The notes under the pieces were generated by a model, which made no database searches, was not told where the DNA came from, and saw only the letters and a list, made by a program, of their open reading frames with translations. A stretch of 45,825 nt of DNA from Escherichia coli (lineage in GTDB: Bacteria > Pseudomonadota > Gammaproteobacteria > Enterobacterales > Enterobacteriaceae): NCBI RefSeq assembly GCF_003334765.1, contig NZ_QOWT01000032.1; one strand, 5' to 3'. The position numbers and the translations under genes are program-made. Below are positions 3,533 to 45,825 of this stretch, one piece after another. Every line of letters begins with the position of its first letter. Within the stretch, counting starts at the first letter, position 1.

Positions 3533-4798
3533 TTACGGTTTGAAGTCCAATGGCGCGTTTTTGAACACTTCATATACTGCCTGGCTTGGTGGTTTCGGGA
3601 TCTTCGCAAGTTTAGCTGCTGCCAACGCAGCCTGACAAAGTGCGGGATCGCCACCTTCAGGTTTGATATCCAGTAACATACCATCGGGTGCCAGTTTTAT
3701 GCGCAGCGTACAGGTTTTGCCTGCATAGGACGATGCGTCATAGAACTTACTTTCGATAGCAGATTTAATCTGCCCGGCATAGTTATTGATATCGGCCCCT
3801 GATGCGCCATTGTTTTTAGTATTACCACTCCCGGCAGGCGAAGCATTGTTCCCTTTCGCCCCTCCCCCCGTTTTCGGTGCATTCTTACCAGAGCTTAGCT
3901 CACCGAAAATATCATCTGCCTCTGCGGCCGCTTTTGCTGCAGCGGCTTTTTCAGCTGCAGCTTTTGCCGCTGCCGCTTTTTTGTCTGCGGCGGCTTTTTC
4001 TGCCGCTGCTTTCTTATCAGCTGCTGCCTTTTCAGCAGCCGCTTTTTCTGCTGCTTTTTTGTCGGCTGCAGCTTTCTCTGCTGCCGCTTTCTTATCAGCT
4101 GCAGCCTTTTCAGCAGCCGCTTTCTTCTCAGCTTCTGCTTTGGCTTTTTCAGCAGCTTCAGTTGCCGCTTTCTTTCTTGCTTCAGCTGCAGCTGCTTCTG
4201 CCGCTTCCGCTTTCTTCTTCAGTGCCGCAGCGGCTGCCTCGGCTTTTTTCTGCGCTTCGGCTGCGGCTTTGGCGGCTTCTGCTTCTGCTTTTTTCTTTGC
4301 GTCTGCAGCCGCTTTCTTCGCTGCTTCTTCCGCAGCTTTAGCATCTGCTTCGGCCTTCGCTTTAGCATCTGCCGCCGCTTTCGCTGCCGCCTCTTCAGCT
4401 TGCTTCTGCTTTAACTCGGCCTGTTTTGCGGCTTCTTCAGCCTGCTTTTTCTGCTCCTGAGCCGCTAACCGCTCTTTCTCAAGTTGCTTCAGGCGTTCCT
4501 GTTCAGCCGCTTGTTTCTCACGCAGTTCTTCAGCAGCCTGCTGTTCCTTCATCTTGCGCTGTTCATCAGAACGCTTCGCGCTTGATTCCTGGCTTTGCAT
4601 GCGTTTGTACTGCTCAACTACCGCACCTGAATCAACCATGACAGCGTCGATGGACGAACCACCGCCGCCTCCGGCTGAAGCTTCTATATTCTCATCGAAC
4701 GAACTCCAGATCAGCGCCGCAAATAAGATGACATGCAGCACTGCTGAAATAATTATCGCCCGCTTGAGCTTGTCGTTTTGTTCGGTTGCCTTTGACAC
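3533..4798 (-). CDS. tolA: Tol-Pal system protein TolA (N-terminal TM anchor, long Ala/Lys/Glu-rich helical domain II, C-terminal domain III)
   Basis: 421-aa ORF; characteristic low-complexity domain II. Confidence 0.95.
   Translation of the reverse strand: MSKATEQNDKLKRAIIISAVLHVILFAALIWSSFDENIEASAGGGGGSSIDAVMVDSGAVVEQYKRMQSQESSAKRSDEQRKMKEQQAAEELREKQAAEQERLKQLEKERLAAQEQKKQAEEAAKQAELKQKQAEEAAAKAAADAKAKAEADAKAAEEAAKKAAADAKKKAEAEAAKAAAEAQKKAEAAAAALKKKAEAAEAAAAEARKKAATEAAEKAKAEAEKKAAAEKAAADKKAAAEKAAADKKAAEKAAAEKAAADKKAAAEKAAADKKAAAAKAAAEKAAAAKAAAEADDIFGELSSGKNAPKTGGGAKGNNASPAGSGNTKNNGASGADINNYAGQIKSAIESKFYDASSYAGKTCTLRIKLAPDGMLLDIKPEGGDPALCQAALAAAKLAKIPKPPSQAVYEVFKNAPLDFKP
3929..4514 (-). repeat. 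Imperfect tandem coding repeats encoding TolA domain II (KAAAEKAAADKKAA-type units)
   Basis: Visible DNA periodicity (gctgc/gccgc-ttt units); creates a 224-aa mirror ORF on the plus strand. Confidence 0.8.
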
Positions 4799-40214: not shown

Positions 40215-41633
40215 TTATTTCCCCTTCCGCGCCGCCTCATACGCTGCCAACGTTTGTACTCTCGCTTCTTTGTGCTCGACTATCGGTTGCGGATAATCCA
40301 GCGTCACACCTGCTTTCTGCGCCCACTTCCACGGCTCATGCACCACTTTCCCTGGCACATCGCGCAGTTCCGGTAGCCACTGGCGGATAAACTCGCCCTC
40401 ATGATCAAATTTCTCGCCCTGGGTTGTCGGGTTGAAAATACGAAAATACGGCGCTGCATCGGTTCCGGTTGAAGCGGCCCACTGCCAGCCACCGTTATTG
40501 GCTGCCAAATCACCATCAATCAGCTGCGACATGAAATATCGCTCGCCTTCGCGCCAGTCGATCAATAAATCTTTCACCAGAAAACTGGCTGTAATCATCC
40601 GTAGCCTGTTATGCATCCAGCCAGTGCTGTTAAGCTGACGCATAGCGGCATCAACAATCGGGTATCCCGTTTTGCCTTCCTGCCAGGCCTGTAAATGTGC
40701 GGGATTGCTCTGCCACTGTACACGATCCGTCCAGGCAATAAATGGACGATGTTTACACAACGAGGGGTGATACGTTATCAGGTGACGGTAAAACTCGCGC
40801 CAGATCAGCTCATTAAGCCAGACACTACCGGCCCCACCGTCCAGCGCCTGCGGCTGTTCAGCCAACAAGCGATGCAAGCACTGGCGAGGCGATAACCCGC
40901 CCGTTGCCAGGCTGGCCGACAAACGGCTGGTGCCTTCCACTGCCGGAAAATCTCGTTGTTGCTCATATTCTCCGGCACCGTTCTGGCAAAACTGGCGTAA
41001 TTGCGCAATCGCCGCTTTTTCTTCCACCGGAAAATGCGCAGTATCGAAAGACTGACGAGGATAATTCAGCGTAATGGATGGCGAGGGCTCTATCGATCCG
41101 CTACTACGAACTTTTGGCGCAGCGACGCACTCCGGCATCCCTTCCCGCAGCCGTTTCAGCCAGGCATTCTTAAAAGGCGTAAAGACTTTGTACATCTCGT
41201 GATTACCGGTCATCACCGCGCCAGGCGGCAGGATCACGCTGTCATCAAATCCTTCACACACCACGTTACGCAGCGCTCTTTCAACTTCCACATCCCGCGC
41301 CCGCTCATTCACTTCATACTGATAGTTATAAAACAGGTGGGTAACGCTGTTTTCCGCGCACACCTGTTTAACTATTTCGACACTGGCGACAAAGTCATCC
41401 ACTTCACGGAACAATAAAGGAATACCTTTTTCCGCAAGCGCTATTTGTAGCCCATTCAGTTGAGCATTGATAAGTTCAGCCTGACGCGGCGACATGTTAT
41501 GCGTCGCCCACTGGCGTGGTGTAGCGATATACAACGCCAGCACGCGTGCAGACGAATTGCGGCAGGCGGCAGCCAGTGCGAGATTATCGTGCAGACGTAA
41601 ATCCTGGCGAAACCAGACCAGATGGGTAGTCAT
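40215..41633 (-). CDS. phr: Deoxyribodipyrimidine photolyase (CPD photolyase)
   Basis: 472-aa ORF MTTHLVWFRQDLRLHDNLAL... with FAD-binding C-terminal domain. Confidence 0.96.
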   Translation of the reverse strand: MTTHLVWFRQDLRLHDNLALAAACRNSSARVLALYIATPRQWATHNMSPRQAELINAQLNGLQIALAEKGIPLLFREVDDFVASVEIVKQVCAENSVTHLFYNYQYEVNERARDVEVERALRNVVCEGFDDSVILPPGAVMTGNHEMYKVFTPFKNAWLKRLREGMPECVAAPKVRSSGSIEPSPSITLNYPRQSFDTAHFPVEEKAAIAQLRQFCQNGAGEYEQQRDFPAVEGTSRLSASLATGGLSPRQCLHRLLAEQPQALDGGAGSVWLNELIWREFYRHLITYHPSLCKHRPFIAWTDRVQWQSNPAHLQAWQEGKTGYPIVDAAMRQLNSTGWMHNRLRMITASFLVKDLLIDWREGERYFMSQLIDGDLAANNGGWQWAASTGTDAAPYFRIFNPTTQGEKFDHEGEFIRQWLPELRDVPGKVVHEPWKWAQKAGVTLDYPQPIVEHKEARVQTLAAYEAARKGK

Positions 41634-42139
41634 AAAACTCCTGAATGGCGCAAGTTAATCACACGCGGCCAAAGTTCGAAATAACGCTGCCCTGAAAGCC
41701 AGGCGTCAGGATAAAGCGCCATATAGTGTTTGATACGCATCAGCGGCGCAAGAAGTGGTTGCTCGCCACGGCGATAACTGTCGATAAGCGCAGCCAGCTG
41801 CTGGCGTTCTGTGGAATCAATATGCGGGCGAAAATAACCCTGAACGTGCATCAAAACATTGGTGTGATCGCGCGGGTTGGCGGGGTGAGAAAGCAAAACA
41901 ACTACGCGTTGGCGGTACTGGTTGTAATAGTCATCCAGATTTTGCCACTGGTGAATATCAGCCACGAACGGGCCAAGTTTGCGGTACTCCGGCTGAGAAT
42001 GCGCCAGAAAGACGAGTTTATAGCGGCTGTGATAATCGAGAAGCGCCCCGCGCGTTAAGCCATGTTCTTTCAGTCGATGTAACTCATGAAGGGCAAAGAT
42101 ACGGATTAGGGTGCTGTCATCAAATCGTTGTAGATTCAT
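41630..42139 (-). CDS. ybgA: DUF1722-family protein, co-transcribed with phr
   Basis: 169-aa ORF; 4-nt overlap with phr start. Confidence 0.88.
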   Translation of the reverse strand: MNLQRFDDSTLIRIFALHELHRLKEHGLTRGALLDYHSRYKLVFLAHSQPEYRKLGPFVADIHQWQNLDDYYNQYRQRVVVLLSHPANPRDHTNVLMHVQGYFRPHIDSTERQQLAALIDSYRRGEQPLLAPLMRIKHYMALYPDAWLSGQRYFELWPRVINLRHSGVL

Positions 42140-42286
42140 TACTGCTCCTGAGCGGTTTACAGGAGTAAGTGTAGACGTTGAGAAATGATATTTGTGAAGT
42201 TAATCCTGTTGTAGCAGGACAAATTTACGAAAGCCTGCTCCCCGCAAGGACTGACGTCAGGTAGTTTCTAACCATAGCTGCCCTTT

Positions 42287-43048
42287 CTATTCAAACGTGA
42301 AATCAATAAGCTCATCAGGGACATCGCAAACAATATGAAGACGGGTTTCTTCTCTGCCGTGACTCTTTTCACTAATTGCGTAACTGTCATGCTTGGGATT
42401 ATTTAATTCTTTCAGCGGAAATTTTTCCTCGAAGGCTTTATTTAGCCGCCCCTGGTTTCCTTTTACAGCGAATAAATAATCACCTCCCTGTTTTTGTATC
42501 TTCTCTGCAATATCTTTCTGGCAACCCATCGCATCAGTTGTGATGATTTTTCCTTTAATATCCAGCATGTTAAGAAGTTCAGGGATAGCTGTGATCTCAT
42601 TGGATTTCTTATCCGTCTTGATCTGTCCGATGACCAGACTGTGCATTGTTGAGAACGCACTAATGACATGAATCGCTCCCTTACGGCGACTCTTGTCATA
42701 AGAATGCCGGTGTATTTTTCCATCAATTGCGATGACGTCTTTATCATCTGAAGAATGGTAGTCAAGCATCCAGTTAATAAAGCTCTCATGAAATTTCGCA
42801 GGACAGATACAGGATACAACTCTGGCAATGGTATCGTGAACAGGAATACCATTTTCAAAATCACCATATTGCTTCAAAAAATCGGGATGTGTTTCCCCAA
42901 AATCCTCTATATCTTCCCAGCCTTCTGCACCAGAAATAACGGCACAAATAGTCAACAGTAGAATATCCGATAACTTATGTTCCATTTTCCAGGCTTGTCT
43001 GTAATCGGGGATAATAGAAATATGTCCCATCAATTTTTTAAGTTCCAT
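42287..43048 (-). mobile_element. ybfD: ISAs1-family (H-repeat) transposase, C-terminally truncated (253 of about 378 aa)
   Basis: [18 protein letters not shown]... ends ...LIDFTFE-stop, where the paralog in this window reads [10 protein letters not shown] (TAG in place of Trp codon), then diverges. Confidence 0.85.
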
Positions 43049-43155
43049 TTTGTTCTCCTTAATTATGTAAGGAGTATTTGATCATGTGTAAGCAATAAAA
43101 AACAGCTTTAGGTAATAAGGAATATCTCAATTTTTAAACATAAAATGCGAATTGT

Positions 43156-44278
43156 TTAGTACAAAAAGTGAACTTCTGATGATCTTTCCCTGTGTTTAAC
43201 GCAGCCTTCTTTCTTTTCCTCTTCACCCTTAATGTCTTTGCAATCTCTTAATAAATTCAGTGCCATCTTCTTTATTCCAGATATTATTTAGGCTGCGTTT
43301 CCTCTTCTTATCCGGCTGGCATCTTCATTCATTTTTACATCTAACACCCAATGAAGACTGTGCTCGATCAGCCAGTGCGCTCTGATAGCATGTGCAAATT
43401 CTTTAGCATCCATATCCTTTGATGAAATATAATATCGGATGCTTACACCTTCTGCTGATTTATCTTCTTTCTTCTGCCTGAATGACAATGCTACACAAAG
43501 CTTTTTTAATCCCTTCCATTCGAATTCAAAATCACAAAAGTTCAGGCGTTACGTTACTGACAATATGCAAACGTGTTTCTTTTCTTCCATGACTTATCTC
43601 CTGCGTACTAAACGAATCGCCTTTATAATTAGAAAACACATTTACAGGAAATTTTTCCTCGAATGCATGATGTAATTTCCCCTGATTGCCTTTTACTGCC
43701 AGAAGATAATCTGCTTTTTTATCTTTGATCTTCGAAGCGATATCTTTCTGACAGCCCATAGCATCAATGGTTATCAAATTTTTCTTTAAATACAGTAGGT
43801 TAAGCAACTCTGGAATGGCTGTAATCTCATTACTTTTGGCTTCCGTTTTCACCTGCCCCAGTACAACACCATTTTCGTTCGAGAATGCACTCACCATATG
43901 GATTGCTCCTTTTCTTTTTCCCTTATCAAAGGAGCCTCTTATGGTCTTTCCATCTATTGCTATAATTTCACCATCAGTGATTTCATGGCACTCCTGCATC
44001 CATTCAATAAACATCTTTTCAAAGGCCAAACTGTCAATGTTACTCACAACGCGTGCAATGGTGTCATCGACCGGAATGCCATTATCAAAATCACCATATT
44101 TCTTTAGCCATTCAAGTCTTTCATGTCCAAAATCTTCAATTTCCTGCCACTCATCGGCACCTGCAATTACTGCACATACGGTGAGAAACAAAATAGCAGA
44201 TAATTTATGTTTAACCTTTCCTTGTTGTCGTATATCAGGGGTCACTGAAATATAATCAAGCAAACTTTGAATACTCAC
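43156..44278 (-). pseudogene. ybfL: ISAs1-family (H-repeat) transposase pseudogene: frameshift near 43530 and in-frame TAA at 43288
   Basis: Three consecutive pieces (43532-44278; 43291-43488; 43156-43287) together cover a full-length transposase; about 65% identical to ybfD so not a recent duplicate; K-12 annotates pseudogene fragments ybfQ/ybfL here, assignment uncertain. Confidence 0.75.
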
Positions 44279-44351
44279 CTGGCGTCCTTTTTTATCTTTT
44301 TAGTTATTCCAAAGGTTAAATTTTGATCACCTGTAGGCGTTAAAGCAAAGA

Positions 44352-44381
44352 TGAAAATCGTGATTTACATCACAATTTTCA
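44352..44381. other. 13-bp inverted repeat with 4-bp spacer between ybfC and the H-repeat copy
   Basis: tgaaaatcgtgat-ttac-atcacaattttca (12/13 match). Confidence 0.4.
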
Positions 44382-44459
44382 TGATCTTGCCCTGCCCCGT
44401 CCCTTGCTCTCATGTCTTTCTGTATGTATTTTATATTTTTCTCTTTCTGGTGTTGTTCA

Positions 44460-44942
44460 TTATGACCATTTACCAATCCAGTCAAAAACTTCATTTTTCA
44501 AATTGTTATCATAATAATCAACATCATAATAGTCTCCATAATTAATTATTTTATAACTAGCCTTCTTGTTTTTATCACTAAAATACACCCGTTGTTTTGT
44601 AGCGCAGAACTCCATATTCTCCAGTTTACTAATGTTTTTTAATCGCACGCTATAAAGAATATCATTGAAAAAATTAAGATTTATATCAACCACTCCACAG
44701 TGCGTCCTGTAATTATTAACCATTATACTTATAAAATGACCATTCCCTCTACTAATTTTTTGGTCATTAATTATTTTATAAATAATATTTTTTTCAGAAA
44801 GATATATCTCAACGCTCTTTGGTGTTTTATGTCCATAAAATACGATGTCAGAATTTGAATTGTTATCAAACCCAAGGTAAACAACAAATAAACAAAGGGT
44901 AATTAAAAAAATGACAAGTTTGCCTCTAATAATTTGAAGCAT
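44460..44942 (-). CDS. ybfC: Small AT-rich membrane-anchored protein immediately downstream of the Rhs toxin tip; probable cognate immunity protein
   Basis: 160-aa ORF with N-terminal hydrophobic anchor [25 protein letters not shown]; 17-bp overlap with the Rhs ORF; immunity role is positional inference. Confidence 0.7.
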
Positions 44943-45825
44943 CTGAACTCCCTTGCTTTGCTTTTATTGGATTATCTGCTTTTATACCATCTAACCCGAA
45001 GAGTTGCCCAGTGTTATATTTTTCAATACATGCATCGCTACATTTGGCAGAAAAATCGCCACAAGCAATACCGACAGTGTTATTTTTAAGATCCATGATT
45101 CTTTCTTTAGCTGGCTGACCTTGTCTATCCCCTGCCGCCTCATGATTTTTACCTATCACGTCAGCTATTGTTGATCCAAATGTCTTAGTCATTCGACACA
45201 TCAAGTAACAATGTCTCATTGCATCGGCGGCCCCATTATGAGCTCCGCCAACAATAGCATCCATATCATAACCGAACTGGTAAGCACTGTTAGTAATGCT
45301 GTTTGCAGCAATCAATCCAGGTACACCAGATACGGCATAAATTAGTCCACCTGATGTCATATTCTCAATCGCATCTAACCCCATTGGGTCTATCACTTGT
45401 ATGGGATTCAACGGATACTGATACATATTCCATCCACCTCTCAACCCAATCGGGTCCGGGGTGATATACCGCCCCTGCAACGGATCGTAGTGCCGGTGAC
45501 GGTTATAGTACAGCCCCGACTCCTCATCATGCTGCTGCCCTGGCAGACGGTACGGCTGGTGCAGGTGATGCGGGTTCTCCTCATTAAGCTGGTTGCCCCA
45601 TTCATCATACTCCCCGCGCCACGCCGTATTGCCGTCTTCGCTGATGAGCGCCAGCGGCAGGCCCCGGTGGTCGCAGTGGTAAAAATGAACTTTTCGCGCC
45701 GGTGTGTATTCCGGCTCCACCTGTCTGGCCAGTTGCTCCACCGTCAGTCCGCACTGCGCAAGCCACGCCCGGCTTTCACTGCTCACGCGGTCTGCCCGGA
45801 TTTCTTCCTCCAGCCTGTCCAGCAG
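44926..45825 (-). CDS. ybfO: Orphan Rhs C-terminal fragment: end of Rhs core (PxxxxDPxGL) plus about 149-aa polymorphic toxin tip of unknown activity; 5' end beyond window
   Basis: ...[23 protein letters not shown]...[13 protein letters not shown] boundary motif at aa 124-137 of the ORF; GC-rich core gives way to AT-rich tip around 45375. Confidence 0.85.

Follow-up and report, generated by a model that had tools for sequence, protein, structure and literature searches.

The window, by which we mean the whole 45,825-bp stretch of Escherichia coli DNA analyzed here (contig NZ_QOWT01000032.1), carries on its minus strand, in order of reading, the 3' end of an rhs gene, a ydcD-family gene, two ISAs1-family transposase pseudogenes, ybgA, and phrB. 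The rhs segment (44926–45825, minus strand) comprises the end of the core and an RhsE-type C-terminal tip, matches NF041261 and TIGR03696, is cut by the end of the window, and has a single mismatch to MG1655 rhsE. Just 3' of the Rhs C-terminal tip lies the ydcD-family gene (44460–44942, minus strand; NF050020, 215 bits), a member of a cassette of ~4 kb that is shared between loci. On the far side of the two pseudogenes, the annotated ybgA (41630–42139, minus strand; NF007549, 347.9 bits) is the first gene of the core genome. The sequence and the list of open reading frames bear out the preliminary description of this DNA in placing both transposase copies on the minus strand, head to tail, and the left ends of the two elements form direct repeats with a spacing of 1202 bp (our repeat family D3).

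Elements of the ISAs1 family (ISfinder) are ~1.2–1.5 kb long, are bounded by imperfect terminal inverted repeats of ~14–22 bp, and generate target-site duplications of ~8–10 bp. Against the NF033564 model, "ISAs1 family transposase," for which the cutoff is 70 bits, the ybfD ORF of the downstream copy scores 282.6 bits (E = 4e-84; profile positions 1–220 of 314) and the N-terminal ORF of the upstream copy 293.5 bits (E = 2e-87; positions 1–218 of 314). Both matches are far beyond chance, and they uphold the earlier assignment of the two copies to ISAs1-family (H-repeat type) transposase pseudogenes. Each copy thus presents a single transposase ORF that fits the family model, and neither has a full DDE domain or an unbroken frame, the ORFs stopping at about position 220 of the 314 in the profile; intact relatives cover the full profile and contain both PF13808 and PF01609. 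Alignment to these relatives reveals stops, frameshifts, and deletions, which disposes of the possibility, raised at the outset, that the ORFs are intact after all. Terminal inverted repeats, read off the alignments, match at 16 of 17 positions in an intact 1305-bp relative and at 12 of 17 in an intact 1291-bp relative; within the window, the upstream copy has a left repeat only and the downstream copy has both, the right one diverged (9 of 17, by eye). The upstream and downstream copies share 69% nucleotide identity and 59% amino-acid identity, close to the 65% first estimated, and at this distance they represent different IS species of one family.

The upstream copy is an ISEc26-like element that occupies 43193–44394 (minus strand) and corresponds to positions 1–1205 of 1305, so that it lacks the terminal 100 bp and, with them, the right inverted repeat. 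As reference we used the intact ISEc26 at the yafV locus of O157:H7 strain 9234 (L003, 4107–5411; 1305 bp, 390-aa transposase), from which the window copy differs by 10 substitutions in 1205 bp and three indels, with homology stopping at 43193/43191. Its left inverted repeat, CAGGGCAAGATCATGAA (44378–44394, minus strand), agrees at 16 of 17 positions with the reverse complement of the right end of intact ISEc26 (CAGGGCAAGAGCATGAA). The N-terminal ORF of the transposase (43535–44278, minus strand) begins with GTG and runs for 248 codons, until an additional C at 43540 (minus strand), relative to intact ISEc26, shifts the frame and produces a TGA at 43534–43532; this is the frameshift that the preliminary description had located near 43530. 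The in-frame TAA at 43288–43290 (minus strand), also correctly identified there, is GAA in intact ISEc26. The list of lesions given at that stage was sound for these two and overlooked a second frameshift, caused by a 5-bp deletion at 43228–43229 (minus strand) in which one GGGTG unit of GGGTGGGGTG was lost. The extent proposed for this copy, down to 43156, needs to be shortened, as the element ends at 43193 and the frame beyond that point belongs to the left end of the downstream element. The PGAP annotation makes the same overrun and extends the upstream frame to 43134. Nor can the copy be called old, as had been supposed, because 10 substitutions in 1205 bp, a divergence of 0.8% from intact ISEc26, are not those of an old relic.

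The downstream element (42215–43192, minus strand), annotated as ybfD by PGAP, is an H-rpt, an ISAs1-family IS of the ISEc5/ISEc1-like type, and measures 978 bp, an internal 313 bp having been lost from the original 1291 bp. Here the references were intact ydcC elements of 1291 bp and 378 codons (L002, 7309–8599; L010, 5634–6924). The left inverted repeat, CAGGGAAAGATCATCAG (43176–43192, minus strand), abuts the truncated upstream copy, and matches to ISEc1/ISEc5 elsewhere begin at 43192. The ybfD ORF (42287–43048, minus strand) comprises 253 codons and a TAG stop (42287–42289, minus strand), which alignment to intact ydcC identifies as a TGG>TAG nonsense change at Trp254, in agreement with the earlier reading of a stop where the paralog has tryptophan. 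That reading also held that the C-terminal third had been lost by a deletion beside ybgA; the deletion is in fact internal. It removes 313 bp, element positions 912–1224 or about codons 256–360, with GC microhomology at its junction (42280–42281, minus strand), and it leaves in place both the right inverted repeat (42215–42231, minus strand; reverse complement CAGGACAAATTTACGAA) and the last 57 nt of the transposase gene (42225–42281, minus strand), which encode 18 codons ending in AAMVRNYLTSVLAGSRLS plus the stop and are out of frame with the N-terminal ORF. Homology to ydcC stops at CCTG, at 42215, and pairwise alignment to ydcC finds the right end TTTGTCCTG still there, finishing at that same position. 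The 67-bp tail past the deletion was placed by this pairwise alignment, the MAFFT alignment having misplaced it. The deleted segment holds the motif HWHVENKLHW, which lies inside the Pfam DDE domain (residues 102–343), and judging from the span of Pfam DDE_Tnp_1, the catalytic glutamate would be expected within this HW..EN segment. Like the 1291-bp H-rpt repeat with its ORF downstream of the Rhs extension, the window copy lies 3' of an Rhs tip and ydcD, and it amounts to a ydcC element minus 313 bp. Transposase production is now impossible from either copy in the window.

The lesions of ybfD are specific to the ybgA locus and widespread. Of 5426 complete E. coli genomes, 2813 contain a 70-mer that spans the TAG and the deletion junction, nearly all of them in a single copy, and 2684 contain it at ≥99% identity; the junction between the downstream right end and its flank occurs in 3102. 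With such numbers, the ybfD lesions are no sequencing errors, a finding that the preliminary description had named as one that would refute it, and the upstream lesions likewise recur in all nine of the interrupted copies described below. Between the ybfD right inverted repeat and the core lies a 37-bp island tail (42178–42214, minus strand). The empty ybfA/ybgA site in strain F2_81 sets the island boundary at 42178/42177, so that the core resumes at 42177, 37 bp past the ybfD right repeat, and the pair does stand at the edge of an Rhs island, as was first proposed.

Within the window, neither element is surrounded by a target duplication, and of the 10-bp H-rpt target site GCGTTAAACA only the proximal copy remains (43193–43202, minus strand; read as 43202–43193), the distal copy being missing. 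Other genomes preserve what the window has lost. The reciprocal junction, in which the H-rpt right end meets the ISEc26 tail, is found in 284 of the 5426 complete genomes, a class that retains the 10-bp target duplication GCGTTAAACA together with the distal 100 bp of ISEc26. In O121 strain RM8352 (L013), one of the 284, which has both copies of the target site, GCGTTAAACA is followed directly by CAGGGAAAG at the start of the H-rpt, and CTTGCCCTG at the end of the H-rpt by the second GCGTTAAACA and then CATGTTATATAG, from where the sequence continues to the ISEc26 right end. Uninterrupted ISEc26 (L003) contains a single GCGTTAAACA, so the 10 bp are not repeated across the insertion point, and ISEc26 without interruption or lesions occupies the same min-5 site in O157:H7. 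Because the duplicated GCGTTAAACA and the distal ISEc26 tail flank the H-rpt in 284 genomes, we read the pair as a nested insertion: the junction sequences demonstrate that the H-rpt transposed into an ISEc26-like element between positions 1205 and 1206 and thereby deprived the ISEc26 transposase gene of roughly its final 27 codons. What appeared to be a tandem pair, and was described as two insertions side by side, is really one element inside the other. We consider it probable that the region preserves what is left of two different ISAs1-family ISs, one inserted into the other, which now remain as passive repeats on the right-hand border of the Rhs toxin/immunity island. The clean 10-bp target duplication is indirect evidence of one past event, in which the H-rpt transposed at least once; transposition activity of H-repeats has not been observed, according to a genome paper (PMC3032704).

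The lesions of the upstream copy have a distribution of their own. The +1 C, the TAA, the 5-bp deletion, and the junction between truncated ISEc26 and H-rpt are present in 9 of 9 interrupted copies examined, which come from the RhsE/pptA locus (MG1655, YJ3, and BR1220), the ybgA (RhsC) locus (the window, S40, FELIX_MS771, and CEA106S), and the yafV (min-5) locus (RM10042 and RM8352). The three lesions are absent from the uninterrupted ISEc26 of O157. A 70-mer across the junction of truncated ISEc26 and H-rpt occurs in 2205 genomes. Identical lesions at three chromosomal loci mean that those of the upstream copy did not arise at the window locus. The earlier picture of two separately decaying copies is therefore right in that their lesions differ and were independently acquired, and wrong in assigning the decay of the upstream copy, which is shared at three loci, to this one.

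The RhsE, ybgA, and yafV loci have in common a segment of ~4.0 kb at 97–99% identity, which begins ~1.37 kb before the rhs stop codon and finishes inside or at the end of the H-rpt. Upstream of it the rhs cores are ~75% identical, and downstream the right flank of the H-rpt is different at each locus. A segment so closely shared, between divergent cores and locus-specific right flanks, argues for spread by recombination. The series of events that we propose would start from an ISEc26-type element that lay 65 bp past ydcD, the Rhs tip gene. A 1291-bp H-rpt of the ISEc5/ISEc1 type inserted at 1205/1206 of this element and generated the 10-bp target duplication, a step to which the junctions retained in other genomes attest, and the interrupted ISEc26, as its shared lesions show, gained the +1 C, the GAA>TAA change, and the 5-bp slippage deletion before the cassette reached the three loci. 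Homologous recombination may then have carried the cassette, consisting of the rhs 3' end, ydcD, and ISEc26 interrupted by H-rpt, from locus to locus, the conserved Rhs core serving as left arm and a resident H-rpt as right arm, and in spreading the cassette may have dropped the distal target duplication and the ISEc26 tail; recombination through these two arms would explain why both are missing. The resident H-rpt beside ybgA, ybfD, separately acquired the TGG>TAG change and the internal 313-bp deletion that are seen in its sequence. In the window genome, finally, a crossover between 42974 and 42833 appears to have joined an RhsE-type left part to ybfD; the joint can be read directly, and an origin within the cell is what we infer for it. 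The direction and the mechanism of cassette movement proposed here are reconstructed from end states.

The evidence for the last of these steps comes from a four-way alignment, in which the informative sites from 43192 to 42974 are all of RhsE (ydcC) type and those from 42833 onward all of ybfD (H-rptC3) type, placing the crossover in the interval 42833–42974 (minus strand). Between 45825 and 42834 the window has 1 mismatch in 2992 bp to MG1655 RhsE, and in the following 554 bp it has 27. From 42833 onward it is identical to K-12 ybfD except at two positions (42540 and 42536), and the next 21 kb, on the housekeeping side, matches K-12-like genomes at 100.0%. On these informative sites, the downstream copy reads as a ydcC-5'/ybfD-3' recombinant, and such a joint would be expected if H-rptE and H-rptC3 had undergone unequal crossing-over or gene conversion. 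The window's upstream copy has 0 differences from the pseudogene at K-12 RhsE (yncI position). Authentic K-12 has at the ybgA locus the order ybfC, ybfQ' (H-rpt bp 1–381), ybfL' (a full-length H-rpt with an internal stop), ybfD', and ybgA, and its ybfD is without the first 24 bp; the gene order of the ybfQ-ybfL-ybfD region is also given in PMC10652928. An identification of the upstream copy as ybfL, made with FELIX_MS771 taken as K-12, was rejected, since authentic K-12 has ybfQ', ybfL', and ybfD' there and since a copy equivalent to ybfL should be about 93–98% identical to ybfD/ydcC, whereas the upstream copy is 69% identical to H-rpt.

Recombinants of this kind are rare. The pair of ISEc26 and H-rpt adjoins ybgA in only 3 of 5426 complete genomes, and the whole arrangement of the window has no match among the complete genomes of the collection. 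An identical 251-mer over the crossover is found only in BR1220, at RhsE, and in CEA106S, at ybgA, the latter differing from the window by 3 mismatches in 3368 bp. FELIX_MS771 has a comparable joint with its crossover further 5', and in BR1220 a ybfD-type conversion patch lies in the RhsE H-rpt, the opposite direction to that in the window. The structures of CEA106S and FELIX_MS771 are odd. A deletion by recombination between ybfL and ybfD has arisen during laboratory evolution (PMC10044804). The left side of the rearrangement falls outside the window, which stops at 45825.

Three other readings have to be weighed against these data. Two independent insertions, side by side at the island edge and each long decaying in place, would be in keeping with the fact that the copies are different IS species at 69% nucleotide and 59% amino-acid identity, that their lesions differ, and that the ybfD lesions are specific to the ybgA locus. 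Such a history can nevertheless be given hardly any credence, because the upstream element breaks off at position 1205 exactly where the left end of the downstream one starts, both the duplication and the ISEc26 tail survive in 284 genomes, RhsE, ybgA, and yafV share this junction and all three upstream lesions, the upstream copy is 0.8% from intact ISEc26, and the pair stands beside ybgA in only 3 of 5426 genomes; for the upstream copy, the model is already contradicted. It is likewise very improbable that the truncated YbfD, a product of 253 aa with a DNA-binding N terminus and two-thirds of the DDE domain, has been retained as a functional derivative, for instance a regulator or inhibitor of ISAs1 transposition. 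In its favor, the exact TAG/deletion allele is present in 2684 genomes at ≥99% identity, and the ybfD and ydcC probes were reported to be up-regulated in long-term stationary phase (PMC4032248). Clonal inheritance can, however, account for the frequency of the allele, many strains are without the island (L007) or have other alleles with different stops, and array and PCR probes cannot tell near-identical H-rpt copies apart.

A weightier objection concerns the chimeric joint itself, which could have been created in assembly: a K-12-like genome in which the true neighbor of ybfD is ybfL would give exactly this joint if it were put together wrongly across the H-rpt repeat. The left part of the joint is 1 base in 2992 off MG1655 RhsE and the right part is essentially identical to the ybgA side of K-12, the copies do not differ over the 140 bp in which the crossover falls, and the arrangement is nearly missing from complete genomes, with the pair beside ybgA in 3 of 5426 and the 251-mer in two. 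We still judge an artefact unlikely, at perhaps the level of a serious minority view, because the complete genome of CEA106S carries the identical chimeric 251-mer beside ybgA, because FELIX_MS771 and S40 have analogous joints with other crossover points or in other sequence lineages, and because BR1220 offers a natural conversion between the same H-rpt copies.

Both copies belong to known elements. H-rpt is a 1291-bp repeat reportedly described by Zhao and colleagues in 1993, with a 1134-bp ORF-H and a position downstream of the Rhs core extension; the same authors are said to have distinguished H-rptE (ydcC) from three tandem defective H-rptC copies at RhsC (ybfQ, ybfL, and ybfD). The downstream copy of the window is this classical Rhs-associated H-rpt (ISEc5/ISEc1): it is the same element as the K-12 H-rpt, is situated 3' of an Rhs tip, and shows the same TAG and 313-bp deletion as K-12 ybfD. 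Unlike K-12 ybfD, whose neighbor is ybfL, it has an ISEc26-like pseudogene beside it, and roughly its first 220–360 bp, including the left inverted repeat, are of ydcC type. The upstream copy is ISEc26 and matches the O157:H7 element at the yafV locus (WP_000027427.1) at 99.2% over 1205 bp, with the same left repeat and the same place after ydcD/yncO; it departs from the intact element in the +1 C, the TAA, the 5-bp deletion, and the H-rpt insertion that cost it the last 100 bp. Another close counterpart is K-12 RhsE, where rhsE', ydcD, yncI', ydcC, and pptA follow one another with the same junction of truncated ISEc26 and H-rpt and the same upstream lesions. There the H-rpt (ydcC) is intact and leads to pptA, whereas that of the window switches to ybfD sequence and leads to ybgA. 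Both copies are already named and annotated in RefSeq as pseudogenes ("frameshifted; internal stop" and "incomplete").

The shared segment also recalls the model of Rhs C-terminal displacement and shuffling of orphan tips put forward by Jackson et al. in 2009 (PMC2935791). As that model would predict, the cassette common to the loci has its left boundary within the conserved 3' region of the rhs core. Insertion sequences and transposases go unmentioned in that paper, whereas here the exchanged segment has its right boundary within an IS copy. We therefore put forward, tentatively and as something that may well prove otherwise, that dead H-rpt copies act as portable right homology arms and, with the Rhs core, move a toxin-tip/immunity cassette of ~4 kb among at least three loci, the window then recording a rare and recent transfer from RhsE to RhsC in a K-12-like strain.

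As routinely annotated ISAs1/H-repeat pseudogenes, the two copies are in themselves of little consequence. Mosaic H-rpt sequences show that the RhsC, RhsE, and min-5 loci have undergone recombination and gene conversion with one another, and they bear both on the exchange of Rhs toxin/immunity tips and on the ease with which such repeats can mislead genome assembly. Worth keeping are the nested-insertion history and the evidence that dead IS copies may mediate exchange between Rhs loci.

The left inverted repeat of ybfD is present in the window copy (42215-43192, minus strand) but absent from the K-12 copy. In K-12 (comparison locus L008, ~4500-4502 on its own numbering, as for all comparison loci here), position 25 of the ybfD H-rpt directly adjoins the right end of the ybfL H-rpt, and it is because of this abutment that K-12 ybfD lacks its left inverted repeat. 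On the opposite side, the island tail separating the H-rpt right end from the core genome measures 37 bp in the window (42178-42214), and in strains such as CUVET19-1969 (L005, 6291-6668) it is about 378 bp long and AT-rich. Similarity between these two types of tail is limited to the last ~16 bp.

Several structures point to exchange between the RhsC and RhsE loci, next to ybgA and pptA, respectively. In BR1220 (L011, 5778-6941), the H-rpt at the RhsE locus carries a ybfD-type patch of ~460 bp, equivalent to 42833-42374 of the window, and despite this patch it retains TGG and its full length. The patch is a gene conversion that proceeded from the RhsC copy to the RhsE copy. In FELIX_MS771 (L001, 8737-8769), 33 bp of an H-rpt left end is fused to the final 276 nt of ydcD, with TTTT microhomology at the joint; this strain is K-12-like, and the illegitimate junction marks the left side of a segment of RhsE type that has been inserted at its RhsC locus. 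Between ybfC and the ISEc26-like pseudogene copy, CEA106S (L009, 6586-9427) has an H-rpt whose right flank is of the RhsE type, together with a nearly complete pptA. The joint connecting this segment to ISEc26, whose sequence here runs from about its position 28 onward, reads ATGAATGCT followed by AAATCACG. The arrangement looks as though a circle released by excision at the RhsE locus had integrated here.

O157:H7 9234 (L003, 533-1825) has an intact ISAs1 element of the H-rpt type. It directly adjoins an orphan rhs fragment, itself truncated, at the fragment's 5' end; the fragment sits upstream of the ydcD-ISEc26 cassette. In the window, a hairpin with a 14-bp stem followed by a T-rich tail (44351-44382, minus strand) lies just inside the ISEc26-like copy's left inverted repeat. 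RefSeq annotates a putative 61-aa ORF, "protein YncO," on the plus strand (44360-44545), where it overlaps the 3' end of ydcD and the left end of the IS in antisense orientation. The hairpin could keep transcription of ydcD from running on into the transposase gene.
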